33,408 bases of DNA from a virus: the UHGV virus genome UHGV-0124208; one strand, given 5' to 3'. Below the pieces are notes generated by a model. The model had not been told where the DNA came from, did no database searches, and saw nothing but the letters and a program-made list of their open reading frames with translations. Positions 1 to 33,408 of this stretch are shown one piece after another (position 1 is the stretch's first letter; each line of letters opens with the position of its first letter). The translations under genes and the position numbers were made by a program.

Positions 1-1138
1 CGCTGAGCGGGAACACGGACGCGAGATCGTCAACAAACTCGCACATCAGCAGGTTCTGGTATTCGTCCGGGCTGTACTCCAAGCGTAGCTGGTCGAGGTC
101 GAACAGGTTACAGCCGCCGCGCACCGCATCTTCCACGGTGACTATCTGGCGGTATTGCCCGTCTGCGCACAGCAGGCCTGGGGCCAGATTGCTGTGGGAC
201 AGGTCGATGTCCACCTTGTCAGCTTTGTTGCGTCCACGGTTGAACAGCGCACCGGACCAGAACGGATAAGCACTGTGGGTCAGGCTGGATGGCGTGGAAA
301 AATAGGTTTGTCGCCATTTTTTGTGAATAGCCATCCCGGAAGCCACTTTGCGCAGCTCCTGGAATTTCGGTATCCAGAAATATTCATCCAGATACAGGTT
401 GCCGTGATAACTCTGGGCCGTGCGGGCATTGGTGCCGAGGAAGTAAAGCGTGGCTCCGTTAGGAAGCACCATCGGATCGCCTTTCAGCTCCACCTCGACT
501 TCTTTGGCGAAGTCGATGATGTATTGTTTAAAGACGTGGGCCTGAGCCTTACTGGCAGAAAGGAAAATCTGGTTACGTCCGGTAAGTAGGGCGTCAATCA
601 GGGCTTCACGGGCAAAATAGAAGGTCGCGCCGATCTGGCGTGACTTCAGCAGGTTGCGGATGCGGTTGGTTTTTCCGGCTTCCCACCAGTGGCGCTGGTA
701 GTTGAACATGGAGGAATGGAAGATTTCTTCCAGCTTCTCAATCTGCTCATCGGTGAAAACATTCTTTTCCGGCTGACGGCGTGGGCCTTTATTGCGGTTG
801 GCGACGTTAGGGTTTAAGTCGGCTTCGTTGCCGCCATTGTTAAACTTGCCGATCCGCGCGTGGCGCTCAGACTGGCGCGCCAGCAGGTCAATCTCTTTGA
901 AATCTTTCCCTTCTTTGTGCTCCTTCATAATGAGCTGGCAGTAGCGTGCGGCGGTGGTGAGCTGCATCTGATCCAGCGGCCCATAGTCACCCCACTTGTC
1001 GCGTTTTTTCCAGCTGTGAACGGTTGCAACTTTCTCGCCCAGCATTTCAGCAATGCGGGCTACGCGGTATCCCTGAAAGTACAGCAGCATGGCCTGCCGA
1101 CGGGGATCGAGATCTGCGGGTGTCAGTGTGGTGTTCAT
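1..1138 (-). CDS. P: Terminase large (ATPase) subunit gpP, N-terminal 379 codons; ORF runs off the window start and continues in frame at 32783..33408
   Basis: Manual translation of the minus strand from ATG (rc of cat at 1136-1138) gives [36 protein letters not shown]... with no stop down to position 1. It sits divergent from O, as in P2. Not in the ORF track because it lacks an in-window stop. Confidence 0.85.
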
Positions 1139-1184
1139 GGCACAAACCTACAGCCTTGAATGACGGCTTTCCCCGCCTGCGGTT

Positions 1185-1202
1185 TGTGTGGTTGTCGGTA
1201 CA
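1185..1202. promoter_or_regulatory. TGT-N12-ACA dyad (Ogr/Delta-type late-promoter activator site) in the divergent P/O control region
   Basis: Sequence TGTGTGGTTGTCGGTACA read directly; P2 late promoters carry a TGT-N12-ACA element near -55 (established knowledge). Which of the two divergent promoters it serves is not resolved. Confidence 0.5.
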
Positions 1203-1280
1203 AATACCGCGCATTGTTTCACTGCCCCCATCACCGCAACCATAAGGCTCCAGTAAGTTTTTTCTAACGGAGCACGGCTC

Positions 1281-2114
1281 ATGACAGTGAAAGCAAAGCG
1301 TTTTCGCATCGGGGTGGAAGGTGCCACCACCGACGGACGCGAAATCCAGCGTGAATGGCTGGAACAGATGGCAGCCAGCTACAACCCGGCGGTGTATACC
1401 GCGCTGATTAACCTTGAGCACATCAAGTCTTATCTGCCGGACAGCACCTTTAACCGCTACGGCAAGGTGACGGCGCTGTTTGCTGAAGAAATCACGGAAG
1501 GTCCGCTGGCAGGCAAGATGGCGCTGTATGCCGACGTTGAGCCAACGGAGTCCCTGGTGGAGCTGGTGAAAAAAGGCCAGAAATTATTCACCTCTATGGA
1601 AGTCAGCCCGAAGTTCGCTGATACGGGCAAAGCCTACCTGGTCGGCCTGGCTGCCACTGATGACCCTGCCAGTCTGGGCACTGAAATGCTGACATTCAGC
1701 GCCAGTGCAGCCCATAACCCACTGGCAAACCGCAAGCAGAATCCTGCCAATCTCTTTACCGCTGCAGAGGAAACGGTGATCGAACTGGAAGAAATCCAGG
1801 ACGACAAACCGTCCCTGTTTGCCCGTGTCACGGCGCTGTTTACCAAAAAAGATCAGTCCGATGACGCCCGGTTCTCTGATGTGCATAAGGCCGTGGAGCT
1901 GGTCGCCACTGAGCAGCAGAACCTGAGCGCACGCACCGAAAAATCCCTGTCTGAGCAGGAAGAACGCCTGTCTGAGCTGGAGACTGCCCTGCAGGCACAG
2001 CAAACCGCCTTTAACGAACTGGTGGACAAGCTGAGTCATGAAGACAGCCGCCAGGACTACCGCCAGCGTGCAACAGGCGGTAACGCCCCCGCTGACAGTC
2101 TGACCAATTGCTGA
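1281..2114 (+). CDS. O: Capsid scaffolding protein gpO
   Basis: 277-aa ORF directly upstream of the major capsid gene; position and size match P2 gpO (about 284 aa). Confidence 0.85.
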   Translation: MTVKAKRFRIGVEGATTDGREIQREWLEQMAASYNPAVYTALINLEHIKSYLPDSTFNRYGKVTALFAEEITEGPLAGKMALYADVEPTESLVELVKKGQKLFTSMEVSPKFADTGKAYLVGLAATDDPASLGTEMLTFSASAAHNPLANRKQNPANLFTAAEETVIELEEIQDDKPSLFARVTALFTKKDQSDDARFSDVHKAVELVATEQQNLSARTEKSLSEQEERLSELETALQAQQTAFNELVDKLSHEDSRQDYRQRATGGNAPADSLTNC

Positions 2115-2130
2115 TGGAGCACAAAACCCG

Positions 2131-3189
2131 ATGAAGAAGAATACCCGCTTTGCTTTTAACGCTTACCTGCAGCAGCTGGCGCGTCTGAACGGTGTGGCAG
2201 TTGAAGAACTGTCCAGCAAGTTCACCGTGGAGCCGTCTGTGCAGCAGACGCTGGAAGACCAGATCCAGCAATCCGCCGCTTTCCTGACGCTGATTAACGT
2301 CACGCCAGTGACCGAGCAGTCCGGTCAGCTGCTGGGGTTGGGTGTTGGTAGCACCATTGCCGGAACCACTGACACCACCGCGAAAGAGCGTGAACCTGTC
2401 GATCCTACGCTGATAGTCGATGTGGAATACAAATGCGAGCAGACCAACTTTGACACGGTGCTGACCTACGCGAAGCTGGACCTGTGGGCGAAGTTTCAGG
2501 ATTTCCAGGTGCGTATTCGTGACGCGATCGTGAAACGTCAGGCACTGGACCGCATCATGATCGGCTTTAACGGCGTGAAGCGTGCGAAAACCTCAAACCG
2601 TAGCGAAAACCCGCTGCTGCAGGATGTGAATAAAGGCTGGCTGCAGAAAATCCGTGAGGATGCACCGGATCACGTCATGGGCAGCACCACCACGGGCGGT
2701 GAAACCACACCGGGTGCGGTGAAAGTCGGGAAAGGTGGCGAATATGCCAACCTGGACGCCGTGGTGATGGATGCCGTCAATGAGCTTATCGACGTGGTCT
2801 ACCAGGACGATGACGATCTGGTGGTGATTTGCGGTCGTGAACTGTTGTCTGACAAGTATTTCCCGCTGGTCAACAAAGAGCAGGAGAACAGTGAAAAACT
2901 GGCTGCAGATATGATCATCAGCCAGAAACGCATGGGTGGCCTGCAGGCCGTGCGTGCGCCGTTCTTCCCGCCGAATGCGCTGCTGATCACCCGTCTGGAT
3001 AACCTGTCCATCTACTGGCAGGAGGATACCCGCCGCCGTTCAGTTATCGACAACCCGAAACGTGACCGGATTGAAAACTTTGAATCCGTTAACGAAGCCT
3101 ATGTGGTTGAGGACTACCGCTGCGCCGCACTGGTGGAAAACATCCAGATTGGCGACTTCAGCGCCGCCGCAGCAGAAACCGGAGCGTAA
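2131..3189 (+). CDS. N: Major capsid protein gpN
   Basis: 352-aa ORF (P2 N is about 357 aa); translation contains stretches I recall from P2 gpN (e.g. KFTVEPSV, DLWAKFQDFQVRIRDAIVKRQ, AADMIISQKR). Confidence 0.9.
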   Translation: MKKNTRFAFNAYLQQLARLNGVAVEELSSKFTVEPSVQQTLEDQIQQSAAFLTLINVTPVTEQSGQLLGLGVGSTIAGTTDTTAKEREPVDPTLIVDVEYKCEQTNFDTVLTYAKLDLWAKFQDFQVRIRDAIVKRQALDRIMIGFNGVKRAKTSNRSENPLLQDVNKGWLQKIREDAPDHVMGSTTTGGETTPGAVKVGKGGEYANLDAVVMDAVNELIDVVYQDDDDLVVICGRELLSDKYFPLVNKEQENSEKLAADMIISQKRMGGLQAVRAPFFPPNALLITRLDNLSIYWQEDTRRRSVIDNPKRDRIENFESVNEAYVVEDYRCAALVENIQIGDFSAAAAETGA

Positions 3190-3192
3190 TCC

Positions 3193-3843
3193 ATGAGCCT
3201 GAGTCCCGCACGGCAGCATCGCCTGCGCGTTCAGGCTGAACAGGCCGCCCGCGAGGGCGGCAGCGTTCGCCACGCGTCGGGCTATGACCTGATGCTGCTG
3301 CAACTGGCGGAAGACCGACGCCGTCTCAAGGGTGTTCAGTCCACGGTCAAAAAAGCGGAAATCAAAGTGGAGCTGCTGCCGAAGTACGCCGCCTGGGCGG
3401 AGGGTGTTCTGGCTGCCGGAGGCGCTCAACAGGATGACGTGCTGATGTACGTGATGCTGTGGCGTATTGATGCCGGAGATTATGCCGGGGCGCTGGAGAT
3501 CGGGCGTCATGCCCTGCGTCATGGCTGGGTGATGCCGCTGGGTAACCGCAACGTGCAGACCGTGCTGGCAGAGGAAATGGCAGACGCGGCACAGAGCGCA
3601 ATGCTTGCCACTACCGGCTTTGATGCCGATCTGTTGCTGCAGACGCTGGAGCTGACAGACGGTCTGGATATGCCGGACCAGTCACGGGCGCGTCTGCATA
3701 AAGCGATTGGCGCTGTCCTGAGTGAAAGTAATCCGGCTTCCGCCCTTAATCATCTCAACCATGCGTTACAGCTCGATCCCCGCTGTGGCGTGAAAAAAGA
3801 CAAACAGCAGCTGGAGCGCAGACTGCGCAATGACAGCCGCTGA
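3193..3843 (+). CDS. M: Terminase small subunit / endonuclease gpM
   Basis: 216-aa ORF after N; contains MYVMLWRIDAGDYAGALEIGRHAL, which resembles the P2 gpM core as I recall it. Confidence 0.8.
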   Translation: MSLSPARQHRLRVQAEQAAREGGSVRHASGYDLMLLQLAEDRRRLKGVQSTVKKAEIKVELLPKYAAWAEGVLAAGGAQQDDVLMYVMLWRIDAGDYAGALEIGRHALRHGWVMPLGNRNVQTVLAEEMADAAQSAMLATTGFDADLLLQTLELTDGLDMPDQSRARLHKAIGAVLSESNPASALNHLNHALQLDPRCGVKKDKQQLERRLRNDSR

Positions 3844-3938
3844 CAGAACGTGCCCCCGCGCACGGGCGGCACGGGGTGGCGAAAGGCACTGCCACATCAA
3901 AACCCCGTCCACCGCCCTTTATTTCAGGAGAAAGCAGC

Positions 3939-4403
3939 ATGAAGTTTGTTGCGCCAGAACAGGCACCGGAACAGGCGGAAATCATCAGAAATACGCCGTT
4001 CTGGCCTGATGTGGACCTGTCGGAGTTTCGCAGCGTGATGCGCACTGACGGCACGGTGACGCAGCCGCGTTTAAAACAGGTTGCGCTGTCGGCAATTTCG
4101 GAGGTCAACGCAGAGCTGTATGAGTTTCGCAGACGTCAGCAGATGCTGGGATATGCCTCGCTGGCAGAGGTTCCGGCGGAACAGCTGGACGGCAAAAGTG
4201 AGCGCATTCATCACTATTTCAACGCGGTTTACTGCTGGGCACGCGCCATGCTCAACGAGCGTTATCAGGACTATGACGCCACGGCATCCGGTGTGAAGCG
4301 GGGCGAGGAACTGGCGGAAGCAAGCGGTGATTTGTGGCGTGACGCCCGCTGGGCCATCAGCCGGGTGCAGGATGCGCCGCACTGCACAGTGGAGCTTATC
4401 TGA
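3939..4403 (+). CDS. L: Head completion/stabilisation protein gpL
   Basis: ATG at 3939 preceded by GGAGAAAGCAGC; the track start at 3876 is a GTG without an RBS. Product begins MKFVAPEQ... and contains NAELYEFRRRQ and LWRDARWAISRVQ, P2 gpL-like. Confidence 0.8.
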   Translation: MKFVAPEQAPEQAEIIRNTPFWPDVDLSEFRSVMRTDGTVTQPRLKQVALSAISEVNAELYEFRRRQQMLGYASLAEVPAEQLDGKSERIHHYFNAVYCWARAMLNERYQDYDATASGVKRGEELAEASGDLWRDARWAISRVQDAPHCTVELI

Positions 4404-4606
4404 TGAAAGTGCGTGCGCATCAGTATGACACGGTGGACGCGCTTTGCTGGCGTCATTACGGGCGCACGCAGGGTGTCACGGAGCAGGTACTGAAGGCAAA
4501 TCCGGGGCTTGCCGAATACGGCCCCTTTTTACCTCACGGGCTGCAGGTGGAGCTGCCGGACATACCGACAACCACCACCGTGCAGACCGTCCAGCTATGG
4601 GACTGA
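4403..4606 (+). CDS. X: Tail protein X
   Basis: 67-aa ORF; the motifs YGRTQGVTEQVLKANPGLAE and LPHGLQVELPD resemble P2 gpX; start overlaps the L stop. Confidence 0.85.
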   Translation: MKVRAHQYDTVDALCWRHYGRTQGVTEQVLKANPGLAEYGPFLPHGLQVELPDIPTTTTVQTVQLWD

Positions 4607-4609
4607 ATT

Positions 4610-4825
4610 ATGACGCTTGAGCGAATCAGTGCCTTTATCACGTATTGCATCGCCGTCGTGCTGGCCTGGCTGGGCGATTTGTCCATCAAGGATGCCTCAA
4701 CGCTGGGCGGCCTGATGATTGGTGTGCTGATGCTGGCTATCAACTGGTACTACAAACACAAAGCCTACCAGCTTCTGCGCGACGGGCAGATCTCGCGGGA
4801 GGACTATGAATCCATCAATCGTTAA
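4610..4825 (+). CDS. Holin, two predicted TM helices (pinholin-like)
   Basis: 71-aa ORF with two hydrophobic segments (AFITYCIAVVLAWLG; LGGLMIGVLMLAINWYY) and a charged C-terminus; immediately upstream of, and overlapping, the endolysin gene. Confidence 0.7.
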   Translation: MTLERISAFITYCIAVVLAWLGDLSIKDASTLGGLMIGVLMLAINWYYKHKAYQLLRDGQISREDYESINR

Positions 4826-5318
4826 ACGCTGCCTTGTCGGGGCCGTGCTGGCTATTGCTGCCGCGCTACCGGGTTTTCAGCAGCTTCACACCTCCGTGGA
4901 GGGGCTGAAACTGATTGCCGATTACGAAGGCTGTCGTCTGCAGCCGTATCAGTGCAGCGCGGGTGTCTGGACCGACGGCATTGGTAATACATCTGGCGTC
5001 ATTCCAGGCAAAACCATTACGGAACGACAGGCCGCGGAAGGGCTGATCTCCAACGTGCTGCGTGTGGAGCGGGCACTGGAAAGGTGTGTGAAGCAACAGC
5101 CACCGCAGAAAGTGTATGACGCGGTGGTGTCATTTACCTTCAACGTGGGGACAGGCAATGCCTGCAGTTCCACGCTGGTGAAATTGCTCAATCAGCGGCG
5201 CTGGGCGGATGCGTGCCGACAGTTGCCGCGCTGGGTTTATGTAAAAGGTGTGTTTAATCAGGGGCTGGATAACCGCCGTGCGCGGGAGATGGCCTGGTGT
5301 TTACAGGGAGCAAACTGA
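4806..5318 (+). CDS. Endolysin, lysozyme-type, with N-terminal signal-arrest-release (SAR) segment
   Basis: 170-aa ORF; N-terminal weakly hydrophobic CLVGAVLAIAAALPGF segment followed by an EG...D...T lysozyme-like catalytic pattern (LIADYEGCRLQPYQCSAGVWTDGIGNT). Confidence 0.8.
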   Translation: MNPSIVKRCLVGAVLAIAAALPGFQQLHTSVEGLKLIADYEGCRLQPYQCSAGVWTDGIGNTSGVIPGKTITERQAAEGLISNVLRVERALERCVKQQPPQKVYDAVVSFTFNVGTGNACSSTLVKLLNQRRWADACRQLPRWVYVKGVFNQGLDNRRAREMAWCLQGAN

Positions 5319-5319
5319 A

Positions 5320-5697
5320 ATGAAAAAGAAATTAATCAGCGGACTGTTTCTGATGTTATGGATGGCGCTGTTAATCGCAGCAATGGTGTATCCGCAGGGG
5401 ATTTTTCCGGTACTGGCAGCGTCCGGCGTTTGGGTAGCCTGTTTGCTGACATGGGCGGTAATTCCGGTAGCACTGGCTGCGTTAATTAAGAATGGCCCGC
5501 TCTGGCAGGAGTTGAGGGCATCTTTGCTGAAGACAATTACCCGAAAAGAAAACGTATTTATCAGCTGGGTGATGCGATTGCTGATTGTCGTCAGTCTCGC
5601 CTGGACGGGGTGGGCTATTACCCTGGTCTTTTATCTACTGACCGTTATTGCCTTCTGGATCACCCGTAATCAGATGGCGCAACAGGTAGCAGCATGA
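5320..5697 (+). CDS. lysA: LysA-like lysis-region membrane protein (about 4 TM)
   Basis: ATG at 5320 (MKKKLISGLF...) right after the endolysin stop; the product is almost entirely hydrophobic helices. Position matches P2 lysA. The track start at 5248 lies inside the endolysin gene. Confidence 0.65.
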   Translation: MKKKLISGLFLMLWMALLIAAMVYPQGIFPVLAASGVWVACLLTWAVIPVALAALIKNGPLWQELRASLLKTITRKENVFISWVMRLLIVVSLAWTGWAITLVFYLLTVIAFWITRNQMAQQVAA

Positions 5698-6122
5698 ACC
5701 GGTTGCTGCTGGTTGTGCTGGCGTTATTACTGGCGGCGCTGGGCTGGCAGACGTGGCGGCTGGCTGATGCCAGCCAGACCATCAGCACGCAGGCAGACGA
5801 GCTGCAGAGCAAAAGCCAGGCACTGGCAAAGAGCAACAGCCAGCTTATCAGCCTGTCCATTCTGACTGAAACCAATAACCGGGAGCAGGCGCGGCTCTAT
5901 GCCGAAGCAGAACAGACCAGCACACTGCTGAGTCAACGACAACACCGGATCGAGGAACTGAAACGTGAGAACGAGGATTTACGCCGCTGGGCTGATACTC
6001 CTTTGCCTGCTGACATTATCCGGCTGCGGGAACGTCCGACACTCACCGGAGGTGCAGCTTACCGTCAGTGGTTGTCCGCGAGTGACGCCGTGTCGGCTGG
6101 ATCAGGCAGCGCCGCGCACTAA
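5694..6122 (+). CDS. lysB: LysB / Rz-like inner-membrane spanin
   Basis: 142-aa ORF with an N-terminal TM anchor (LLLVVLALLLAALGW) then a coiled-coil-like Q/E/R/L-rich region; position matches P2 lysB. Confidence 0.75.
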   Translation: MNRLLLVVLALLLAALGWQTWRLADASQTISTQADELQSKSQALAKSNSQLISLSILTETNNREQARLYAEAEQTSTLLSQRQHRIEELKRENEDLRRWADTPLPADIIRLRERPTLTGGAAYRQWLSASDAVSAGSGSAAH

Positions 6123-6255
6123 CGGTGATCTGAACGCGTTGCTGGATGAAACGGAGGCCGCCTGGGCGGTCTGTGCAGACAAAGTGGACATGATTATTGC
6201 GTGTCAGGAGCGAAACAGTGAACAAACCACAATCCCTGCGCCACGCCCTCAATAA
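5965..6255 (+). CDS. lysC: LysC / Rz1-like outer-membrane lipoprotein spanin, overlapping lysB in the +1 frame
   Basis: Begins in a different frame inside the 3' end of lysB; product has a lipobox (LLTLSGC) and a Pro-rich tail. Start codon uncertain. Confidence 0.65.
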   Translation: MRTRIYAAGLILLCLLTLSGCGNVRHSPEVQLTVSGCPRVTPCRLDQAAPRTNGDLNALLDETEAAWAVCADKVDMIIACQERNSEQTTIPAPRPQ

Positions 6256-6649
6256 AGCGGTGCCTTATGTCCGCAATAACCCGGACAAACTGCATCTGTT
6301 TGTGGATAACGGTTCGCTGGTTGCCACGGGGGCCAGCTCCATGTCGTGGGAGTACCGTTACACCCTGAACGCGGTGATTGAGGATTTCAGCGGCGACCAG
6401 AATCTGCTGATGGCCCCGGTTTTGCTGTGGCTGAGGGATAACCAGCCCGATGCCATCAATAACCCGGCGTTACGGGAAAAACTATTCACCTTTGAGGTGG
6501 ATATTCTGCGCAACGATGTCTGTGATATCAGCCTGAACCTGCAACTGACGGAGCGTGTGTTGGTCAGCACTGACGGCAGTGTGTCGAGCGTTGAAGCTGT
6601 AGCGGAACCTTATGAACCTGAAGAAATGTGGACGGTGAAACGTGGCTGA
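6218..6649 (+). CDS. R: Tail completion protein gpR
   Basis: Start chosen at GTG 6218, preceded by AGGAG at 6205-6209; the track's TTG at 6197 is less likely. Product contains LHLFVDNGSLVATGA and LLWLRDNQPD, P2 R-like. Confidence 0.75.
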   Translation: MNKPQSLRHALNKAVPYVRNNPDKLHLFVDNGSLVATGASSMSWEYRYTLNAVIEDFSGDQNLLMAPVLLWLRDNQPDAINNPALREKLFTFEVDILRNDVCDISLNLQLTERVLVSTDGSVSSVEAVAEPYEPEEMWTVKRG

Positions 6650-7088
6650 ATTGCAGAAGGTGGACGACTGGCTGAGTGCCTTGCTGGCGAATCTGGAGCC
6701 AGCCGCAAGAAGCCGCATGATGCGCCAGCTGGCGCAGGAACTGCGCCGGACACAGCAGCAGAATATCAGGATGCAGCGCAACCCTGATGGCAGCAGTTAT
6801 GAACCGCGCAGGCTAACAGCAAGCAGCAAAAAGGGGCGCATCAAACGTCAGATGTTTACAAAGCTGCGCACCACAAAATACCTGAAAACTGCTGCCAGCG
6901 CCGATTCTGCCAGCGTGCAGTTTGAAGGTAAGGTGCAGCGCATTGCCCGCGTTCACCATTACGGCTTGCGTGATCGCGTCAGTCGCAAAGGACCTGAGGT
7001 CCGTTATGCAGAGCGTCGCCTTCTGGGTGTAAATGATGATGTTGAGGCAATGACCCGCGACATGATTCTGCAATGGCTGGCGGGGTGA
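6642..7088 (+). CDS. S: Tail completion protein gpS
   Basis: 148-aa ORF overlapping the R stop (GTG start as in the track); position and size as P2 gpS. Confidence 0.75.
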   Translation: MAELQKVDDWLSALLANLEPAARSRMMRQLAQELRRTQQQNIRMQRNPDGSSYEPRRLTASSKKGRIKRQMFTKLRTTKYLKTAASADSASVQFEGKVQRIARVHHYGLRDRVSRKGPEVRYAERRLLGVNDDVEAMTRDMILQWLAG

Positions 7089-7092
7089 TCTT

Positions 7093-7110
7093 TGTATCAG
7101 CACTGATACA
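7093..7110. promoter_or_regulatory. Perfect 18-bp palindrome TGTATCAGCACTGATACA (TGT-N12-ACA), candidate Ogr-dependent late promoter element for the V operon
   Basis: Read directly; centred about 55 bp upstream of the V ATG at 7157; matches the P2 late-promoter dyad pattern. Confidence 0.55.
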
Positions 7111-7156
7111 AGTTGCAGTACTGCCGCCTTTCTTCCCCTGATGGCAACCTTTCCCT

Positions 7157-7735
7157 ATGAACGCACAATTAACAGAAATCATGCGCCTTATCACCAACCT
7201 GATCCGCACTGGGGTAGTCACCGAAGTGGACCGGGAGAACTGGCTTTGCCGGGTGAAAACGGGCGACCTCGAAACCAACTGGATCAGCTGGCTGACGCTG
7301 CGTGCCGGGAATGCCCGGACATGGTGGCGACCATCGGAAGGTGAGCAGGTGGTGCTGCTGAGTCTGGGCGGAAATCTGGAAACCGCCTTTGCGCTGCCCG
7401 CTGTGTATTCGAATCAGTTCGCACCACCGTCGACGTCGGCGGACGCCTGCGTGACAGAACATCCTGACGGTGGCTGGTTTGAATACGACCCCGCCACCGG
7501 GCGCTGGTATGTCAGGGGCATCAAATCAATGGTCATTGAGGCCGCTGACAACATCACCATGAAAACCAGTGAGTTTGTACTGGAGGCTGACCGCACGCGT
7601 ATTAACAGCGAAGTAGTGATCAATGGTGGCGTTACCCAGGGCGGCGGAGCGATGAGTTCTAACGGGATCGTGGTTGATGCGCATCAGCATACAGGCGTCC
7701 TGAAAGGCGGCGACACAACCGGAGGTCCGGTATGA
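7157..7735 (+). CDS. V: Baseplate assembly / spike protein gpV
   Basis: 192-aa ORF; N-terminus (LIRTGVVTEVD) and the WWRPSEGEQVVLLSLGG stretch resemble P2 gpV. Confidence 0.85.
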   Translation: MNAQLTEIMRLITNLIRTGVVTEVDRENWLCRVKTGDLETNWISWLTLRAGNARTWWRPSEGEQVVLLSLGGNLETAFALPAVYSNQFAPPSTSADACVTEHPDGGWFEYDPATGRWYVRGIKSMVIEAADNITMKTSEFVLEADRTRINSEVVINGGVTQGGGAMSSNGIVVDAHQHTGVLKGGDTTGGPV

Positions 7736-8091
7736 CGCTTTATAGCGGGATGAACAATACCAGCGGCAAAGTCATTACTGATATTGACCATCTGCGCCAG
7801 TCGGTGCGGGACATTCTGCTGACGCCGCAGGGTAGCCGCATTGCCCGCCGGGAATATGGTTCCCTGCTGTCGGCACTGATAGATCAGCCACAAAATCCGG
7901 CGTTACGCCTGCAGGTTATGTCGGCTGTGTATGTGGCACTGAGTCGCTGGGAGCCACGGCTGACGCTGGATTCCATCACTATTAACAGCAATTTTGACGG
8001 TTCAATGGTGGTGGAGCTGACCGGGCTGCGGAGTAACGGTGTGCCTGTTTCCCTTTCCGTATCAACAGGAGCAGAGAATGGCAGTGATTGA
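7732..8091 (+). CDS. W: Baseplate wedge protein gpW
   Basis: 119-aa ORF overlapping the V stop (ATGA); contains LLTPQGSRIARREYGS, typical of the gpW / T4 gp25 family. Confidence 0.85.
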   Translation: MTLYSGMNNTSGKVITDIDHLRQSVRDILLTPQGSRIARREYGSLLSALIDQPQNPALRLQVMSAVYVALSRWEPRLTLDSITINSNFDGSMVVELTGLRSNGVPVSLSVSTGAENGSD

Positions 8092-8986
8092 CCTTTCGCA
8101 GTTGCCTGCGCCGCAGATTGTGGATGTGCCGGACTTTGAGACGCTGCTTGCCGAACGCAAGGCCGAATTTGTGGCGCTTCATCCGAAAGATGAGCAGGAA
8201 GCAGTGATCCGCACGCTGGAACTGGAATCTGAACCCGTTACCAAATTGTTGCAGGAGAACGCTTATCGTGAGTTGCTTCTGCGCCAGCGCATTAACGAAG
8301 CCGCGCAGGCGGTGATGGTGGCTTATGCCATAGGGAGCGATCTGGACCAGCTCGCTGCCAATTACAACGTGAAACGCCTGACGGTGACGCCTGCTGATAA
8401 TGACGCTATACCGCCCGTTGCGGCTGTGATGGAAAGTGATGAAGCGTTACGCCTGCGTGTGCCTGCAGCCTTTGAAGGGCTTTCAGTTGCGGGGCCAACT
8501 GCAGCTTATGAATTTCATGCCCGAAGCGCCGACGGTCGGGTGGCGGATGCCAGTGCAACCAGCCCGGCACCTGCAGAGGTGGTGCTGACTGTCCTTAGCC
8601 GCGAAGGCGATGGAACTGCAGAAAAAGACCTGCTGGACGTGGTGGAAAAAGCTCTGAACAGTGAGAACGTCCGCCCGGTGGCTGACCGTCTGACGGTTCG
8701 CAGCGCAGAAATCATCCCGTACCGCGTGGAAGCCACCATTTTTCTCTATCCGGGGCCGGAAGCAGAGCCGGTAATGGCAGCGGCAAAAGCCAGCCTGCAG
8801 AGGTACATCGCCAGTCAGACGCGGCTGGGTCGGGATATTCGCCGTAGCGCCATTTTTGCCGCCCTGCATGTGGAGGGTGTGCAGCGTGTGGAACTGGCTT
8901 CCCCGCTGGCGGATGTGGTCCTGAACAAAACGCAGGCGGCATCATGTACGCAGTGGAGCGTGACCAACGGGGGAACGGATGAATAG
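8078..8986 (+). CDS. J: Baseplate protein gpJ
   Basis: ATG at 8078 preceded by AGGAGCAGAGA gives a 302-aa product (P2 J is about 302 aa); the track start at 8039 is a GTG upstream extension. Confidence 0.85.
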   Translation: MAVIDLSQLPAPQIVDVPDFETLLAERKAEFVALHPKDEQEAVIRTLELESEPVTKLLQENAYRELLLRQRINEAAQAVMVAYAIGSDLDQLAANYNVKRLTVTPADNDAIPPVAAVMESDEALRLRVPAAFEGLSVAGPTAAYEFHARSADGRVADASATSPAPAEVVLTVLSREGDGTAEKDLLDVVEKALNSENVRPVADRLTVRSAEIIPYRVEATIFLYPGPEAEPVMAAAKASLQRYIASQTRLGRDIRRSAIFAALHVEGVQRVELASPLADVVLNKTQAASCTQWSVTNGGTDE

Positions 8987-12058: not shown

Positions 12059-12079
12059 TTCTCATTCCATATAGCTAAA

Positions 12080-23416: not shown

Positions 23417-23459
23417 TTTAGACTCCTCCAGTAAGTATTTAAAAGTAATGTCTGCAATG

Positions 23460-24420: not shown

Positions 24421-24485
24421 CCGTTTTGTGATGTTTTGTCACGATTAATACCGGCTCACCACAAGCCAATAGGAGATGTTGCATC

Positions 24486-24707
24486 ATGACCCCTAACATT
24501 TCAATAACTCTGAATACGCCACACGTCACAATTGAGCGTTATAGCGAACTTACTGGTCTTTCTATCGACACCATCAACGATATGCTGGCTGATGGTCGTA
24601 TCCCTCGCCATCGCCTTCGGAAAGACAAGAAAAGAGAAAAGGTAATGATCAACCTTGCTGCTCTTACCGTTGATGCACTTACTGATTGCAATGTTGTATT
24701 CAACTAG
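24486..24707 (+). CDS. apl: Apl/Cox-like small HTH protein (excisionase / lytic-switch repressor)
   Basis: 73-aa ORF, first gene of the rightward operon opposite cI; contains an HTH-like segment [24 protein letters not shown]. Confidence 0.7.
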
Positions 24708-26290: not shown

Positions 26291-27144
26291 GCACCATCCT
26301 GAAATGGGCGGGAAATAAAACCGCAATTATGTCCGAACTGAAAAAACACCTTCCTGCTGGCCCGCGACTGGTTGAACCTTTCGCGGGTTCCTGTGCTGTG
26401 ATGATGGAGACGGATTATCCAAGCTATCTGGTTGCGGATATTAATCCTGATTTAATCAACCTCTATAAAAAGGTTGCCGCTGATTGTGAATCGTTTATAT
26501 CTCGCGCCAGAGTTTTATTTGAGATCGCAAACAGGGAGGTGGCTTATTACAACATAAGGCAGGAGTTTAATTACTCCACTGAAATTACTGATTTCATGAA
26601 AGCGGTATATTTCCTGTATCTCAATCGTCACGGTTACCGTGGTTTATGTCGCTATAACAAGAGCAGGCATTTCAACATTCCCTACGGTAATTATAAAAAT
26701 CCGTATTTCCCTGAAAAAGAACTTCGCACATTTGCAGAAAAAGCCCAGCGAGCAACGTTTGTCTGCGCCAGCTTTGATGAAACGCTGGCGATGTTGAAGG
26801 CGGGGGATGTGGTGTATTGCGATCCGCCGTATGACGGTACGTTTTCCGGCTATCACACTGATGGTTTCACTGAAGATGACCAGTATCACCTGGCATCCGT
26901 TCTTGAACATCGGTCATCAGAAGGACATCCGGTCATTGTTTCTAACAATGACACATCCCTGATTCGTTCGCTGTATCGCAATTTTACTCACCACTATATC
27001 AAGGCAAAACGCAGCATCGGCGTGTCAGCTGGCGAGGGTAAATCTGCAACAGAAATCATTGCTGTTTCCGGGCCGAGTTGCTGGTTGGGATTTGATCCTT
27101 CGCGTGGCGTGGATAGTTCTGCCGTGTACGGAGTGTGTGTATGA
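26287..27144 (+). CDS. DNA N6-adenine methyltransferase (Dam/D12 class)
   Basis: From ATG 26287: [11 protein letters not shown]...EPFAGSCAV... (AdoMet-binding region) and VYCDPPYDG (DPPY catalytic motif); overlaps the upstream stop (ATGA) and the A start. Confidence 0.85.
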
Positions 27145-29555
27145 GTCATGACGATATGAACAATTGCAGCGGCTTTAACGAGGCCGCCGCAGCATTTTCA
27201 TGGAACGGCCCGAAAAAGGCCATTAACCCTTATCTGGACCCGGCGGAAGTTGCGCCGGAGTCTGCACTTTCAAACCTGATCACTCTGTACGCTGCCGATA
27301 ACGAGCAGGAACAACTGCGCCGCGAGGCACTGAGTGAGCAGGTCTGGGAGCGTTATTTCTTTAATGAATCCCGTGATCCTGTCCAGCGCGAAATGGAGCA
27401 GGATAAGCTCATTAGCCGGGCAAAGCTGGCGCATGAGCAGCAGCGTTTTAATCCGGACATGGTCATTCTGGCGGACGTAAACGCCCAGCCTTCCCATATC
27501 AGCAAGCCGCTGATGCAACGTATTGAATACTTCAGCAGCCTGGGCAGGCCAAAGGCTTATTCCCGCTATTTGCGTGAGACGATTAAGCCATGTCTGGAGC
27601 GACTGGATTGTGTACGTGACAGTCAGCTATCTGTTTCTTTCCGTTTTATGGCAAGCCATCAAGGGCTGGAGGGTCTGCTGATCCTGCCTGAAATGAGCCA
27701 GGATCAGGTGAAACGCCTGTCCACCCTGGTAGCAGCGCATATGAGCATGTGTCTTGAGGACGCTTGTGGTGATTTGTATGCCACCGATGACGTTAAGCCA
27801 GAAGAAATCCGCAAGACATGGGAAAAGGTGGCAGCGGAAACCCTGCGTCTGGATGTTATCCCGCCTGCGTTTGAGAAACTTCGTCGGAAAAGAAACCGCC
27901 GCAAACCAGTGCCCTATGAACTCATCCCGGGTTCGCTGGCGCGTATGTTGTGTGCCGACTGGTGGTATCGGAAATTATGGAAGATGCGTTGCGAATGGCG
28001 GGAAGAGCAGTTGCGTGCTGTCTGCCTGGTCAGCAAAAAAGCATCCCCCTATGTCAGCTATGAAGCCGTGATGCATAAACGTGAGCAGCGCCGTAAGTCG
28101 CTGGAGTTTTTTCGTTCTCATGAACTGGTGAACGAAGACGGCGACACGCTGGATATGGAAGATGTGGTAAACGCCAGCAGCAGCAACCCGGCGCATCGCC
28201 GCAATGAGATGATGGCCTGTGTTAAAGGTCTGGAGCTTATCGCGGAAATGCGCAGTGACTGTGCCGTTTTCTACACTATCACCTGTCCGTCGCGTTTCCA
28301 TTCCACGCTCAATAACGGCAGACCAAACCCGACCTGGACAAACGCGACGGTAAGACAAAGTAGCGATTATCTGGTCGGCATGTTTGCTGCATTTCGTAAG
28401 GCTATGCATAAAGCCGAGTTGCGCTGGTATGGCGTGCGGGTAGCTGAGCCGCATCATGACGGTACTGTGCACTGGCATCTCATGTGTTTCATGCGTAAAA
28501 AAGACCGCCGCGCCATCACTGCATTACTGCGTAAGTTTGCCATCCGTGAAGACCGCGAGGAGCTGGGCAATAACACGGGACCACGCTTTAAGTCTGAGCT
28601 GATAAACCCGCGCAAAGGTACGCCAACAAGCTATATCGCGAAATACATCAGTAAGAACATTGACGGGCGTGGTCTGGCTGGGGAGATCAGCAAGGAAACG
28701 GGTAAATCCCTGCGTGATAACGCTGAATACGTTAATGCCTGGGCGTCTCTGCATCGTGTTCAGCAATTCCGCTTCTTTGGCATTCCGGGGCGTCAGGCTT
28801 ACCGTGAACTGCGATTGCTGGCTGGTCAGGCGGCAAGGCAACAGGGTGACAAAAAAGCAGGTGCGCCGGTACTGGATAACCCGCGTCTTGATGCAATCCT
28901 GGCTGCTGCTGATGCTGGTTGTTTTGCCACCTACATCATGAAGCAGGGCGGCGTTCTGGTTCCCCGCAAATATCACCTCATCAGAACTGCTTATGAAATC
29001 AACGAAGAACCGACCGCATATGGCGATCACGGTATTCGTATTTATGGCATCTGGTCACCCATTGCAGAGGGCAAGATCTGCACTCATGCGGTGAAGTGGA
29101 AAATGGTTCGTAAGGCCGTTGACGTTCAGGAGGCGGCAGCCGACCAGGGCGCTTGCGCCCCTTGGACTCGTGGCAATAACTGTCCCCTTGCTGAAAATTT
29201 GAACCAACAAGGGAAAGACAAATCAGCTGATGGGGACTCCAGAACGGATATTACCCGTATGAATGACAAGGAGTTGCACGATTACCTGCACAGTATGAGC
29301 AAAAAAGAGCGCCGGGAACTGGCTGCAAGGTTACGCCAGGTGAAACCGAAACGGCGTAAAGACTACAAACAGCGAATTACAGACCATCAGCGACAGCAGC
29401 TCGTCTATGAACTGAAGTCCAGGGGATTTGATGGCAGCGAGAAAGAAGTCGATTTGCTCCTTCGCGGCGGCAGTATTCCGTCAGGAGCAGGCCTGCGTAT
29501 CTTCTATCGGAACCAGCGTCTGAAGGAAGATGATAAGTGGCGGAACCTGTATTAA
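27141..29555 (+). CDS. A: Replication initiator gpA (rolling-circle HUH endonuclease)
   Basis: About 804-aa ORF (ATG 27141) containing [13 protein letters not shown] (HUH-type motif of P2 gpA-family initiators); position as P2 A. Confidence 0.85.
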
Positions 29556-29906: not shown

Positions 29907-30140
29907 ATGCGCATTGAAATAATGATCGATAAAGAGCAGAAGATTAGCCAGTCTACCCTGGACGCACTTGAATCCGAGCTTTACCGCAATCTGCGCCCCC
30001 TGTATCCCAAAACGGTAATTCGCATTCGCAAAGGTAGCTCTAACGGTGTGGAACTAACCGGACTGCAACTGGATGAAGAAAGAAAACAAGTGATGAAAAT
30101 TATGCAGAAGGTGTGGGAGGACGACAGCTGGCTGCATTAA
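29907..30140 (+). CDS. DinI-family protein (Tum C-terminal-domain-like)
   Basis: From ATG 29907: MRIEIMIDKEQKISQSTLDALESELYRNLRPLYPKTVIRIRKGSSNGVELTGLQLDEERKQVMKIMQKVWEDDSWLH, which aligns by eye with E. coli DinI (MRIEVTIAK...; ...ILQETWESADDW). Confidence 0.75.
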   Translation: MRIEIMIDKEQKISQSTLDALESELYRNLRPLYPKTVIRIRKGSSNGVELTGLQLDEERKQVMKIMQKVWEDDSWLH

Positions 30141-30332
30141 GAAATGTTGCCCCCAGGAGGATTCATTCTGATGGGGGCTAGTTTGGGCAATGAGTGAAAT
30201 AAGGCGTAAGGTGGGCGGTTATTTTGATAAGTGATCGTCCGCTTTGTGTCAGAAGCAGAAGTGGGAGTGTCTGAGACTCTCTAAAAGTTGATGATTCACT
30301 TACAAAACCATTTTCCTGATGGATGCTTACAC

Positions 30333-30668
30333 TTACGAATGATCATTCTGTTTAGTCTTCATGAGAAAATCCCGAATCTTTGCCAAGTTTGAATTTTCGG
30401 GGATTGAATCCATGTACGGATCACGCTCAAACACTAATTGCTCAGATTCAACGAAAGCCTGCCACTCTACTGGGTCTAGCTCAAATCCCATTGCTGTCAT
30501 ATCACTTTCATCTTCCCCCTCGATCCAGTGGACTAAATAAAACAATTCATCATCAGGAGAATCATCCTCACCATCAACAATATCAACATCGGTTACAGTG
30601 ATACGTAGGGTGGGATCGATTTTTGAGACATAAATTCCTAACTGTGGTATAGGGGGAATATTGTTCAT
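30333..30668 (-). CDS. Highly acidic small protein of unknown function (accessory / moron gene)
   Basis: 111-aa minus-strand ORF with a strong RBS (AAAGGAGTTTCC before ATG); D/E-rich (e.g. DVDIVDGEDDSPDDE, EGEDESD); AT-rich; lies between the DinI-like gene and the putative cos site. Confidence 0.65.
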   Translation of the reverse strand: MNNIPPIPQLGIYVSKIDPTLRITVTDVDIVDGEDDSPDDELFYLVHWIEGEDESDMTAMGFELDPVEWQAFVESEQLVFERDPYMDSIPENSNLAKIRDFLMKTKQNDHS

Positions 30669-31047
30669 GGAAACTCCTTTTATTGGTGTTTGCTATTTGA
30701 ATAAAAATACGCCAAACAGAGTGTTAACTGTGAATATGGAAAGAATCGTTGTAAGTACCCCGCTTAGGTGTCCCATTCTATTTTAGAGGTTCTCGTGCAT
30801 ATGGATTATGTTATCTGAAAGTTAACTTCCGCTTCCCGTTCACAGCGAACATTCATCTTTGTAAACCCGTATGATCCGTTTTTCAAGTGGCCATTCAGAT
30901 ACGGATTTTCACTTCCTTGACAGTGCATGACTATGCTGCATGAAATCGCATGATCGATTGAGGATCGTCTTTGCTCAGATCCGCCAGAACTGGCGGGCTT
31001 TTGCTCATGTCATGCATGTGCATGAAAACCACTGCATAAAGCGGGCA

Positions 31048-31066
31048 GGCGTGGCGGGGATACGAG
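31048..31066. other. Candidate cos (cohesive-end) site
   Basis: GGCGTGGCGGGGATACGAG: the first 13 nt match the 19-nt cohesive end I recall for 186 (GGCGTGGCGGGGAAAGCAT; P2 GGCGAGGCGGGGAAAGCAC). Lies in the only sizeable non-coding stretch between A and Q. The last 6 nt differ, so the exact ends are uncertain. Confidence 0.45.
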
Positions 31067-31155
31067 CGCGCGCTGATGGGGGACGCAGTGCTTTTGGCAT
31101 AGTTATGAGGTAGAATTTCAAAATACTTTTTAGCGCTGTTGGAGGTATAGACAAA

Positions 31156-31701
31156 ATGGACGTTATAACTGGAGTTGCAGAGTTTTTTCGAAAAGTACCT
31201 GCAGCATTTCTTGTGGCTATTACATGTGTTTTAGGTCTTATACTTTTTCTGCCAGACTCTTTGGCAGTAAAAGTGGCTGTTGATGGCTTTCGTAATGAGT
31301 ATAGGATTTTTATTGGACCTGCATTTTTACTGTCTGTATCTTATTTAGTTGCAAGAGTCTATCTCTCTTTCTATGACTTACTTGGTGAAAGGCAGGCTAA
31401 GAAGGTACGCACTTCCTACCTTGAGAAGCTAACAGCAGAAGAAAAAGGATATTTAAAGTCTTATATTACCGAAGGTGTTAATTCACTTATGTGTGGGCCT
31501 GAGGATGGGGTCATGGGGGGACTTGTGGCTAAGGGGATTACTTATAGAGCCACCAGTGTTGGGGATATGATCTACGGTTTTGCTTTCAACTTACAGCCAT
31601 GGGCGCGTGAACATTTAGAGAAAAATAGTCATTTATTAGATGGGGCTATTGGGCGTGCAATGACTCCAAGAGAAAAATTAAACTTTAGATTGGGACGCTA
31701 A
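31156..31701 (+). CDS. Membrane protein with two N-terminal TM helices, unknown function (accessory gene between cos and Q)
   Basis: 181-aa ORF with RBS GGAGG; hydrophobic segments AAFLVAITCVLGLILFLP and IFIGPAFLLSVSYLVARVYL followed by a soluble domain; AT-rich; followed by a strong hairpin. Confidence 0.65.
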   Translation: MDVITGVAEFFRKVPAAFLVAITCVLGLILFLPDSLAVKVAVDGFRNEYRIFIGPAFLLSVSYLVARVYLSFYDLLGERQAKKVRTSYLEKLTAEEKGYLKSYITEGVNSLMCGPEDGVMGGLVAKGITYRATSVGDMIYGFAFNLQPWAREHLEKNSHLLDGAIGRAMTPREKLNFRLGR

Positions 31702-31730
31702 CCAGTCACACATTACCAATGTGTGACTGG
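31702..31730. terminator. Perfect 13-bp stem / 3-nt loop hairpin between the convergent 181-aa gene and Q (putative bidirectional terminator)
   Basis: CCAGTCACACATT-acc-AATGTGTGACTGG read directly, followed on the plus strand by a T-rich run (TGGTGGTTATTTCTTTTATT). Confidence 0.6.
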
Positions 31731-31745
31731 TGGTGGTTATTTCTT

Positions 31746-32783
31746 TTATTCAATGTCAAATTTATATGGTTCAAAAGAAATAACCTTTTCCCCCAACCAC
31801 TCATTTAGTTCTTCGAGTCTTTTTTGTAGCGGTATTAACTCATTACGGACAAAGACGCGGCTGGCTTTTTCCACATCACCAAAGCCGCCGGTATTGTTGG
31901 GAATAATCCCCATCATCTGCGGCGGTACGCGGTGTGCTGCCATCATGTCATCGCGGCTCACGTTCTTAATGTTCAGAAATTCATCCTTTGCTGCAACCTC
32001 AGACAGTGGGATGATCTGGATGCCGTCTTTTTTACCGTTGGGCGAATACATAAACAGGTTGCGGAAGTTGCCCGGACCTTTGGCGCTTTTCATCGCGTTG
32101 CGGAGGTTGTTCACATCCTCCTGGTTCTGCGCGGCGTCAGTCATATACATGATGAAGCCTGCATGGCTGCCGTTGATGTAATACTTACGGCGGAACAGCG
32201 TGGCGGACTCGTTGAGCAGGGCTGACGGAATGGCAGAAAGATAACCGGGCAGGCCGTAGATCTCCTGATTAATATCCGGTTCCATCAGATGAAAAATGCT
32301 GCCTTTCGTGAACTGATACGGCTGGGTTGTCATACCGTATTGCACAAACCAGTAGGTATCCAGGTCTAATCCGCGTCGGGTGTATTTTGCCAGCGCAGGT
32401 TCAAGGGCGATCACTTCACCGAAGCGGTTCGTGCGTTTCTCCAGATAGGCATTGCCAAATACCAGATAGTCCTGCACAAAACGCGAAAAAGCCTGCTGGC
32501 TGAGCAGAGGATGAGGGATATAGGTACTGGTCAGAATGTTACACTTTACTGCAATCGGGGAACTGTGATGCACGGCAGCGCGGAAGGTGCGCGCCAGTCC
32601 GTTAAAGCTGACGGGAGGCTCATACCAGCGGTCCATCTGTACGCATTCCACATAGTCCAGCAGTTCACGGCGGTCCAGAACAGGAACGGGATCGCCGAAG
32701 CTGAATGCTTCGGCTGTAGTTTGACTTTTAAGCTGGATCTGATTCGTCGCCGCAGCGCGGTTCTTCTTACTCTTTCCCATCAA
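31746..32783 (-). CDS. Q: Portal protein gpQ
   Basis: 345-aa minus-strand ORF immediately downstream of, and overlapping, the terminase gene; size and order as P2 Q. Confidence 0.85.
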   Translation of the reverse strand: MMGKSKKNRAAATNQIQLKSQTTAEAFSFGDPVPVLDRRELLDYVECVQMDRWYEPPVSFNGLARTFRAAVHHSSPIAVKCNILTSTYIPHPLLSQQAFSRFVQDYLVFGNAYLEKRTNRFGEVIALEPALAKYTRRGLDLDTYWFVQYGMTTQPYQFTKGSIFHLMEPDINQEIYGLPGYLSAIPSALLNESATLFRRKYYINGSHAGFIMYMTDAAQNQEDVNNLRNAMKSAKGPGNFRNLFMYSPNGKKDGIQIIPLSEVAAKDEFLNIKNVSRDDMMAAHRVPPQMMGIIPNNTGGFGDVEKASRVFVRNELIPLQKRLEELNEWLGEKVISFEPYKFDIE

Positions 32784-33408
32784 AAAATCTCCACAATATT
32801 GCTGGTATTGGCGGATTCGCCCTGCAGCGGTTCGTTAAACAGTGCGTGCATCGTTGCCCAAGCCAGATCGGCGTGGCTGGCTTCTTCGCTGCGGCTGGCT
32901 TCATAGGTCGGGCGGTTGCCACTGGCGGTGGTGGCGCGACGGATTGCCATGAATGACTGCGCAATGTCGGTGTGCCCGGCGTCAAACTCCAGACGGCGGT
33001 GGCTGATAATGTCGTAGGCCTTGAGTACCAGGGCGTTTTTAACGTTGGGGTTGTAGACAAACTCCCGGACGGCAGGAAAGAACGCTTTCACGTTCTCATA
33101 AACCCCGTGACCAACGCCGGTTGAGTCGATACCGATGTATGTCACGTTGTACTGTTCAGTCAGTTTTTTGATGGCGTTAGCCTGGGCGCGGAAGTCCATC
33201 CCGCGCCACTGGTGACGCTCAAGAATGCGGAACTTACCGCCCGGCACGGCTGGCGGTGCCACCACCACGCACCCGGCGCTGTCGCCGTTTTGCGTACCTT
33301 TTGCCGGGTCATAACCGATCCACACTTCGCGCCAGCCAAACGGGCGCAGGGCCAGTGCATGAAAGTCGGTCCAGACTTCCCAACTGTCCACCATGCACGC
33401 CTGCAGCT
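32780..33408 (-). CDS. P: Terminase large subunit gpP, C-terminal portion (208 codons + 2 nt); N-terminal part is at 1..1138
   Basis: Minus-strand ORF open to the window end; positions 33407-33408 plus position 1 form a GAG codon, so the two pieces join in frame (379 + 1 + 208 = 588 codons; P2 gpP is about 590 aa). Confidence 0.85.
   Translation of the reverse strand, partial: LQACMVDSWEVWTDFHALALRPFGWREVWIGYDPAKGTQNGDSAGCVVVAPPAVPGGKFRILERHQWRGMDFRAQANAIKKLTEQYNVTYIGIDSTGVGHGVYENVKAFFPAVREFVYNPNVKNALVLKAYDIISHRRLEFDAGHTDIAQSFMAIRRATTASGNRPTYEASRSEEASHADLAWATMHALFNEPLQGESANTSNIVEIF

Follow-up and report, generated by a model that had tools for sequence, protein, structure and literature searches.

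The window, by which we mean the whole stretch of 33,408 bp that was analysed, carries 45 valid gene models that fill 93.6% of its length, run in the order of phage P2 and consist entirely of phage backbone or hotspot cargo. Of 42 P2 proteins used as tblastn queries, 28 have a homologue in the window, with their order kept, and the size of the window is comparable to that of P2 (33,593 bp) and to the attL-attR interval of Klebsiella phage 4LV2017 (~33.4 kb). The features are the following:

1-1138, minus strand: large terminase (gpP homologue), N-terminal part, codons 1-379 and the third base of codon 380; Terminase_5 and Terminase_6N; 64% identity to P2 gpP residues 4-381
1281-20046, plus strand: late morphogenesis and lysis block in P2 order, by homology to P2 and relatives (O N M L X holin lysozyme lysA-like lysB lysC R S V W J I H G, invertible segment and invertase, FI FII E/E' T U D)
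10617-12444, no strand assigned: invertible tail-fibre segment with 26-bp Gin/Cin-type crossover sites at 10617-10642 and 12419-12444; Caudo_TAP twice, Gp53-like_C
12494-13066, plus strand: serine DNA invertase; Resolvase and HTH_7 (2.3e-53)
20137-20355, plus strand: Ogr/B-type zinc-finger late activator; 51% identity to P2 Ogr
20421-20446, plus strand: attP core TAAATTTCAGGCAACAAAAAACCCAT, 26 bp, unsplit, between ogr and int at the junction of the relatives' att arms
20521-21573, minus strand: tyrosine integrase, 350 aa; 35% identity to P2 Int, called integrase in relatives
21647-23416, minus strand: Old-family ATPase-TOPRIM nuclease, cargo in a 35% GC island between int and cI; PADLOC Old (6e-234), 36.6% identity to P2 Old, full length
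23460-24398, minus strand: 186-type CI repressor with tandemly duplicated N-terminal HTH, 312 aa
24486-30140, plus strand: early operon, by homology to P2 and relatives (apl/cox, cII, fil, DUF5347, DUF2732, TraR/DksA zinc finger, Dam-type methylase, replication endonuclease A at 27141-29555, orf62, DinI/Tum-like)
30333-30668, minus strand: 111-aa protein, function unassigned, cos-proximal cargo; profile match to phrog_17127
31048-31066, plus strand: predicted 19-nt cohesive-end sequence (cos) GGCGTGGCGGGGATACGAG, a single joined copy, by alignment with the P2 and 186 cohesive ends as annotated
31156-31701, plus strand: SieB-family superinfection-exclusion protein, cargo between cos and Q
31746-32780, minus strand: portal protein (gpQ homologue), 344 aa; 61% identity to P2 gpQ over 342 residues
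32780-33408, minus strand: large terminase, C-terminal part, from the first two bases of codon 380 to the stop at 32782-32780, in the same frame as 1-1138; Terminase_6C

The sequence-only reading had proposed that the window is a closed circular phage genome in which the terminase gene wraps in frame across the ends, and each step of that argument was reproduced. The minus-strand ORF that begins with an ATG at 1138 exits at position 1, re-enters at 33408 in the same frame and stops at 32782-32780, the final 626 nt (32783-33408) encoding the terminase C-terminus. Nucleotides 33407-33408 and position 1, which read CTC on the plus strand, form a single GAG codon for Glu380 within ...PLSELQA..., and the joined ends give a gpP of 588 codons that is open throughout. 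In the alignment that had been put forward as a check, the joined ORF matched P2 gpP residues 4-590 in one 590-column HSP with 63% identity, without stop or frameshift. Pfam profiles on the joined protein were covered end to end (Terminase_5 at 11-68, 3e-27; Terminase_6N at 162-382, 7.5e-65; Terminase_6C at 410-571, 1.7e-49); these three full-length domains identify it as a gpP-type large terminase, and the Terminase_6N domain straddles the window junction. Joining the ends makes whole the gene that the boundary interrupts, as in a complete, circularly permuted phage genome. The order of P followed by Q is also that of P2: Q lies immediately downstream of the terminase (32780-31746), and the portal ATG shares one base with the terminase stop.

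In every relative compared (n = 4), positions 33408 and 1 of the window correspond to neighbouring bases: 14577 and 14578 in 4LV2017, 15955 and 15954 in KP12, 1674 and 1673 in an IMG/VR contig, and 23820 and 23819 in an E. coli chromosomal prophage. The record ends are thus adjacent in independent relatives with neither gap nor overlap, as a complete circularly permuted genome would have them. A 469-nt query across the junction was covered without interruption in 54 of 54 phage records, an exact 40-mer spanning the junction is internal to 111 IMG/VR stretches, and a public protein collection holds the identical 588-aa protein as an uninterrupted terminase on 554 contigs. When window segments were joined at random, 11 of 5000 joins (0.2%) had a frame that stayed open for 208 codons or more to each side, a figure that leaves homology out of account. 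No terminal direct repeat of at least 8 nt was present at the window ends, and therefore the window amounts to exactly one genome unit. The in-frame joining ends, together with the internal attP and cos, would be equally compatible with a unit-length cut of a head-to-tail array, either a tandem double lysogen or a replication/packaging concatemer, rather than a monomeric circle; nothing specific favours such an array. The cut would have to be exactly one unit and base-precise, which is expected of circular-contig trimming and not of random windowing, and P2-type phages, which replicate to monomeric circles, are not known to form long concatemers. We consider this origin very unlikely. The window opens within the terminase gene at an arbitrary point, which reflects assembly or record handling and not biology.

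The attP core has a P arm on its left and, on its right, a P' arm with two AAAACAATAAGTT(A/G)G direct repeats. The attR arm of 4LV2017 ends at 20446 and its attL arm begins at 20428, and the same core is found at both ends of the E. coli chromosomal prophage, which is integrated between ybjL and rcdA. In agreement with the earlier claims that the window contains no host DNA and holds attP in the phage and not the prophage configuration, the attR-side and attL-side arms are joined at one core between ogr and int, homology to the integrated relatives ends at the att core on both sides, and the ybjL and rcdA flanks are missing from the window. Judged against these two integrated relatives, an unsplit attP with both arms at one core and no bacterial flanks is the excised configuration. 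Scans of the window for tRNA genes and Rfam families were empty; the attP of 186 contains a tRNA fragment, whereas that of the window does not.

Close relatives are common in chromosomes, with matching segments in ~1,150-1,330 of 5,426 complete E. coli genomes, and the window could on that account be read as an integrated prophage with host flanks whose in-frame ends reflect coincidence or an assembly artefact. However, the homology of the integrated relatives breaks at the att core, these relatives are flanked by ybjL and rcdA, and the window has neither flank; attP is unsplit; four independent relatives have the ends side by side, and a known protein matches the joined one exactly; and the observed open frame was reached by 0.2% of random joins. 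Both the prophage with flanks and the chance join were rejected on the unsplit attP, the att breaks of the relatives and the identical public terminase, which leaves integration a vanishingly small probability.

The cos cut positions are predictions from alignment to the circularised ends of P2 (NC_001895) and 186 (NC_001317). Column for column, the 19 nt match P2 at 14 positions and 186 at 15, and the flanks are conserved. A search of the window with the P2 cos 19-mer, allowing up to 3 mismatches, gave no match. The sequence lies within a conserved island at ~30922-31076, the only stretch between 30100 and 31800 to be conserved across 45 P2-like phages. The sequence-only reading had not located cos. 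The predicted site, homologous to those of P2 and 186, would lie on the far side of Q from P, as in Peduoviridae, and a 546-bp cargo gene is placed between cos and Q.

The remaining backbone points to the same family. Q and P diverge from O-N-M-L, the tail genes run on to D and ogr, and the whole is collinear with Peduoviridae. An Ogr/B activator is accompanied by TGT-N12-ACA sites at the late promoters: three of the seven such motifs in the window, at 1185-1202, 7093-7110 and 13115-13132, fall one to each late intergenic region. Within the invertible segment, an active fibre tip and its assembly gene are on the plus strand, whereas the minus strand carries the alternative pair, with the assembly gene at 11618-12058 and the tip at 12080-12472; homology to 4LV2017 stops in this segment, at 10650. 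The pair of crossover sites was found by a custom 26-mer scan. A generic inverted-repeat search returned solely a chance 16-mer in the fibre region, which was discarded.

The A protein shares 32% identity with P2 A over 600 residues and is annotated as a replication endonuclease in a relative, in accordance with an A-type rolling-circle endonuclease. The domains of the Old protein (AAA_15/AAA_21 and OLD-like_TOPRIM) and its neighbours int and cI, with no helicase partner adjacent, identify it, together with its full-length similarity to P2 Old, as a stand-alone OLD nuclease of the P2 Old type. Searched against genome contigs, this protein matched just two distantly related sequences (22-24% identity), and an integrated copy was not among them; in the complete E. 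coli genome collection an integrated copy of the old region was found. The Old nuclease, the SieB-like protein and the tandem-HTH CI, which make up all the cargo looked up, are exact known Enterobacteriaceae proteins.

This gene content bears on whether the circle might be a stably maintained extrachromosomal phage-plasmid instead of a transient excised or replicative form. Some P2-like elements have been deposited as 'plasmids' (9-10 places on plasmid records), and some P2-like hotspots carry putative partition systems (Rousset et al. 2022, PMC9122126). No partition or plasmid-type replication module was found among the 45 genes, most backbone genes being assigned via homology to P2 or annotated relatives, and the cargo comprises Old, the SieB-like protein, Dam and the 111-aa protein of unassigned function. 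Moreover, neither the integrase nor attP is disrupted, and nearly identical modules occur integrated in chromosomes. A phage-plasmid is accordingly an extremely improbable reading. That a P2/186-like phage truly persists in its host outside the chromosome as this circle, perhaps with a contribution from the unusual immunity region (the tandem-HTH CI, and the Old nuclease located within the lysogeny operon), is a highly doubtful speculation that the sequence does not require.

The window shares with P2 and 186 (Peduovirus/Eganvirus) the gene order Q-P / O-N-M-L...D-ogr-attP-int-repressor-early-A-cos, a homologous 19-nt cos, an Ogr-type activator with TGT-N12-ACA sites and the slippery TTTTTTG of E/E'. 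Its head, tail and replication proteins are 31-68% identical to those of P2, and its lysogeny module is of the 186 type, with CI, Apl, CII, Fil and a DinI/Tum-like gene. The window differs in its cargo: old lies between int and cI and not beside cos, and a SieB-like gene is present between cos and Q. In addition, the HTH domain of CI is duplicated, and attB is different, being the ybjL-rcdA intergenic region. The tape measure has 1025 aa in the window and 815 aa in P2. Whereas 186 retains a mere relic crossover site, the window has a functional-looking invertase and invertible fibre segment.

Closer relatives are the Klebsiella phage 4LV2017 (Elveevirus, NC_047818) and KP12 clone KP12_3 (OM835953), with ~96% nucleotide identity in the backbone over 81-86% of the first 25 kb and the same att core as the window. 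4LV2017 was deposited in prophage order (attL...attR) and has a retron between cos and Q. KP12_3 is, like the window, a circularly permuted record with ogr, attP and int contiguous. Between int and cI the two carry other genes, and the old gene of the window is absent from both. The P2-like prophage of E. coli Z1323HEC0067 (NZ_CP148378.1, 4210.4-4244.6 kb) shows 100% identity across attP'-int-old-cI (window 20420-24500) and 96-98% across most of the remainder; it has the same att core and is integrated between ybjL and rcdA, but it differs in its cos-proximal cargo and in having a disrupted tail-fibre gene. No single record in the collections of phages, plasmids and complete E. coli genomes contained the exact whole mosaic of backbone and cargo modules.

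Closure at the ends, an intact attP, a joined cos and a full gene set are all observed in the window. Taken together, these results make it very probable that the window is a single, whole genome unit of a temperate myophage of the P2/186 type (Peduoviridae), whose hosts are E. coli and related Enterobacteriaceae, and that it is represented as a circle linearised at an arbitrary base within the large-terminase gene. 'Closed circular' is here a property of the sequence representation, physical topology being beyond proof by sequence alone. With attP and the predicted cos, the two cis sites that set the alternative linear forms of the phage, both internal and unbroken, the sequence corresponds to the excised or circularised form; recombination of attP with attB by integrase would produce the prophage. 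Because cos is internal and joined, the DNA packaged in the virion is expected to be linear from cos. On the model of established P2/186 biology, from which these steps are drawn, the circle present after infection or excision would replicate from the A-protein nick site, Ogr would activate the late promoters via the TGT-N12-ACA sites, the M and P terminase would make a 19-nt staggered cut at cos during packaging, and Int with Apl would move the element into and out of the ybjL-rcdA intergenic attB.

The finding is ordinary: it is correct but routine, and already known in kind. Its value lies mainly in bookkeeping, and it raises no new biological question. Annotation should treat the terminase as a single gene that crosses the origin, the record could be rotated to begin at cos (31048), and every low-GC island in the window is to be read as phage cargo, not as flanking host DNA. 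For the family, the window represents one further mosaic member of a very common group; roughly one complete E. coli genome in four carries related segments.

The sequence-only reading had proposed that a minus-strand terminase gene wraps in frame across the ends of the window, and translation of the joined sequence reproduced all of its coordinates and numbers. The ORF starts with an ATG at 1138, runs to position 1 and continues in the same frame from 33408 to a stop codon at 32782-32780, giving 588 codons; the coding part at the window end is 32783-33408 (626 nt). The junction triplet (33407, 33408, 1) reads CTC on the plus strand and GAG on the minus strand, which confirmed the junction codon as GAG, encoding Glu380 in ...PLSELQA.... 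Pfam analysis of the joined 588-aa protein located the following domains:

Residues 11-68: Terminase_5, complete domain
Residues 162-382: Terminase_6N, ATPase, spanning the junction (profile covered 1-214/215)
Residues 410-571: Terminase_6C, complete domain

Alignment of residues 4-590 of gpP, the large terminase of P2, with the joined DNA gave a single HSP of 590 columns at 63% identity, with neither stop nor frameshift. The public protein collection contains an identical 588-aa protein, named terminase ATPase subunit family protein (Enterobacteriaceae), which is carried by 554 contigs, the longest of 5.1 Mb. The window ends share no direct repeat of 8 nt or longer.

A query of 469 nt with the junction at its centre matched 54 of 54 phage records at full length and in a single piece, most of them at 96.8% identity. 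Bases 33408 and 1 map to neighbouring bases in all four independent relatives compared:

14577/14578: Klebsiella phage 4LV2017
15955/15954: KP12 clone 3
1674/1673: L117, an IMG/VR metagenome contig
23820/23819: L121, a chromosomal prophage of E. coli

Moreover, 111 IMG/VR stretches contain the exact junction-spanning 40-mer in their interior, and random joins of window segments, used as a chance control, left a frame open for at least 208 codons on both sides in 11 of 5000 trials. Because the domains are intact, gpP aligns throughout, the two bases are adjacent in relatives, the protein is known and chance joins are rare, the closure of the window ends is, as judged from sequence, exact and no coincidence. 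A unit-length piece taken out of a tandem array would be indistinguishable; it requires, however, a window of exactly one unit, and we regard it as very improbable.

Two integrated relatives were used to locate the attachment site. The deposited record of phage 4LV2017 follows the prophage order: its annotated attL adjoins int and its attR comes after ogr. The arms of this phage align to the window up to 20446 on the attR side and from 20428 on the attL side. A closer relative, L121, is integrated between ybjL and rcdA in the chromosome of E. coli Z1323HEC0067; it is 100% identical to window 20420-24500 and carries the core at both ends, where homology to the window stops on either side.

20421-20446: att core common to attP, attL and attR, TAAATTTCAGGCAACAAAAAACCCAT
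20137-20355: ogr, neighbour of the core
20521-21573, minus strand: int, neighbour of the core

In the window the attL- and attR-side arms are fused at one core and both bacterial flanks are absent, in agreement with the earlier proposals that attP/int is in the phage configuration and that there is no host DNA. A prophage with host flanks is refuted, since attP is unsplit, the homology of relatives breaks at the core and the joined terminase is a known intact protein. A phage-plasmid is scarcely credible, because int and attP are intact and no partition or plasmid-replication gene was found among the window's 45 genes. Only three IMG/VR contigs, all of them from metagenome accessions, contain the joined attP 40-mer. 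The E. coli integration site is the ybjL-rcdA intergenic region (L121 positions 3412-3430 and 37531-37549). By eye, with no folding, a terminator-like hairpin looks possible on both the attB side (AAAAAACCCATCAACC...GGTTGATGGG) and the attP side (AACCCATTTATGTAAACGGGTT); as these putative hairpins have the core's AAAAAACCCAT in common, integration may swap one terminator stem for another.

The stretch between genes A and Q is variable, and the query 30100-31800 was conserved only at ~30922-31074, which matches 45 P2-like phages (Klebsiella, Salmonella, Escherichia, Yersinia, Erwinia).

31048-31066: predicted cos, GGCGTGGCGGGGATACGAG, aligned to the annotated 19-nt cohesive ends of P2 and 186

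This sequence matches column for column the cohesive ends of P2 (GGCGAGGCGGGGAAAGCAC) and 186 (GGCGTGGCGGGGAAAGCAT), and its flanks are conserved (left GTGCAT.AAAACC...AAG.GGGC, right GCGCGC). The predicted cos is present as a single, joined copy, and the window end is 2.3 kb away from it. Because attP and cos are both internal and unbroken, the sequence corresponds to neither the linear virion form nor the linear prophage form; it is the circle, and the base at which it was opened is arbitrary.

Closure, intact attP, joined cos and a full gene set are seen directly. By established P2/186 biology, the circle would replicate from an A-protein nick, Ogr would switch on four late operons, the M+P terminase would cut cos with a 19-nt stagger for packaging through the Q portal, and Int, together with Apl, would integrate the genome at the ybjL-rcdA attB and excise it again. 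Packaging in P2-type phages is understood to start from monomeric circles, which would make a closed circle carrying intact attP and cos a natural intermediate; equally, an assembler could turn virion DNA whose ends had annealed or been ligated into such a circle.

The 45 gene models have valid starts and stops and cover 93.6% of the window. Collinear homologues were found for 28 of the 42 P2 proteins tested: Q, P, O, N, M, L, X, lysB, lysC, R, S, V, W, J, I, H, FI, FII, E, T, U, D, ogr, int, orf82, A and Old. Holin, lysozyme and tail-fibre assembly protein G were assigned via annotated relatives and Pfam. The slippery heptamer T_TTT_TTG of E/E' lies at 15218-15224, and TGT-N12-ACA, a motif that occurs only seven times in the window, is present in each of the three late intergenic regions, at 1185, 7093 and 13115. 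The lysogeny and early genes are of the 186 type, with CI (Phage_CI_repr + Phage_CI_C), Apl/Cox, CII, Fil and a DinI/Tum-like gene. Window scans found no tRNA genes or Rfam families.

The tape-measure gene (15390-18467, plus strand) encodes 1025 aa compared with 815 aa in P2, aligns to gpT in only two segments, and is also found, at 3078 nt, in 4LV2017 and the E. coli prophage. For lysC (Rz1-like spanin; 6007-6255, plus strand), a candidate CTG start was placed by analogy with the 249-nt gene of an E. coli relative; the longest ORF in this frame starts at an alternative candidate, GTG 5965. A Gin/Cin-type invertible tail-fibre switch occupies 10617-13066, with a 26-bp crossover site, TTCTCACATACCTTGGTTTAGGAGAA, at 10617-10642, its inverted partner at 12419-12444, alternative fibre tip and assembly genes on the minus strand of the invertible segment, and an intact serine invertase at 12494-13066; in phage 186 the crossover site is only a relic.

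Cargo adjoining cos is a known P2 hotspot. In the window, cos splits this hotspot: a SieB-family superinfection-exclusion gene (31156-31701, plus strand) lies between cos and Q, a slot holding a retron in 4LV2017, and a 111-aa protein (30333-30668, minus strand; phrog_17127), with no match in Pfam or PADLOC, is encoded upstream of cos on the opposite strand. A full-length Old homologue (21647-23416, minus strand; PADLOC Old 6e-234; 36.6% identity to P2 Old) lies inside a 35% GC island at about 21.6-24.4 kb, between int and cI, whereas old is cos-proximal in P2. Since KP12 and 4LV2017 carry unrelated genes at this position, int-cI probably serves these enterobacterial 186-like phages as a second hotspot for cargo; a cI-int hotspot was described by Rousset et al. 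2022 only for Vibrio P2-related phages (PMC9122126). The CI repressor (23460-24398, minus strand) is 312 aa long, compared with 192 aa in phage 186, owing to a tandem duplication of its N-terminal HTH domain; between the copies, identity is 55% in protein and 72% in DNA (23848-23990 vs 24172-24314). We know of no study of operator binding by a two-HTH CI. The Old, SieB-like and CI proteins each have exact public matches, carried by 141 to 1000 or more contigs (631 for CI, which is thus a common protein).

Backbone identity to phages that were deposited under Klebsiella is ~96%, whereas the cargo modules match chromosomal prophages of E. coli at 99-100%. Of 5,426 complete E. coli genomes, 1,155-1,327 carry related segments; no single record in the phage, plasmid or complete E. 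coli genome collections contains the exact mosaic. Some public relatives are oddly annotated (OM835953.1, MK416020.1, MK416009.1 and others): KP12 clone KP12_3, a circularly permuted P2-like contig, is filed under Vequintavirinae, and 'oxidoreductase' is the name given to the large terminase in several records of Klebsiella prophages. All in all, the window belongs to the Peduoviridae as an ordinary representative whose immunity is of the 186 type, and the finding of a complete circular phage genome is correct, already known in kind and useful for annotation.
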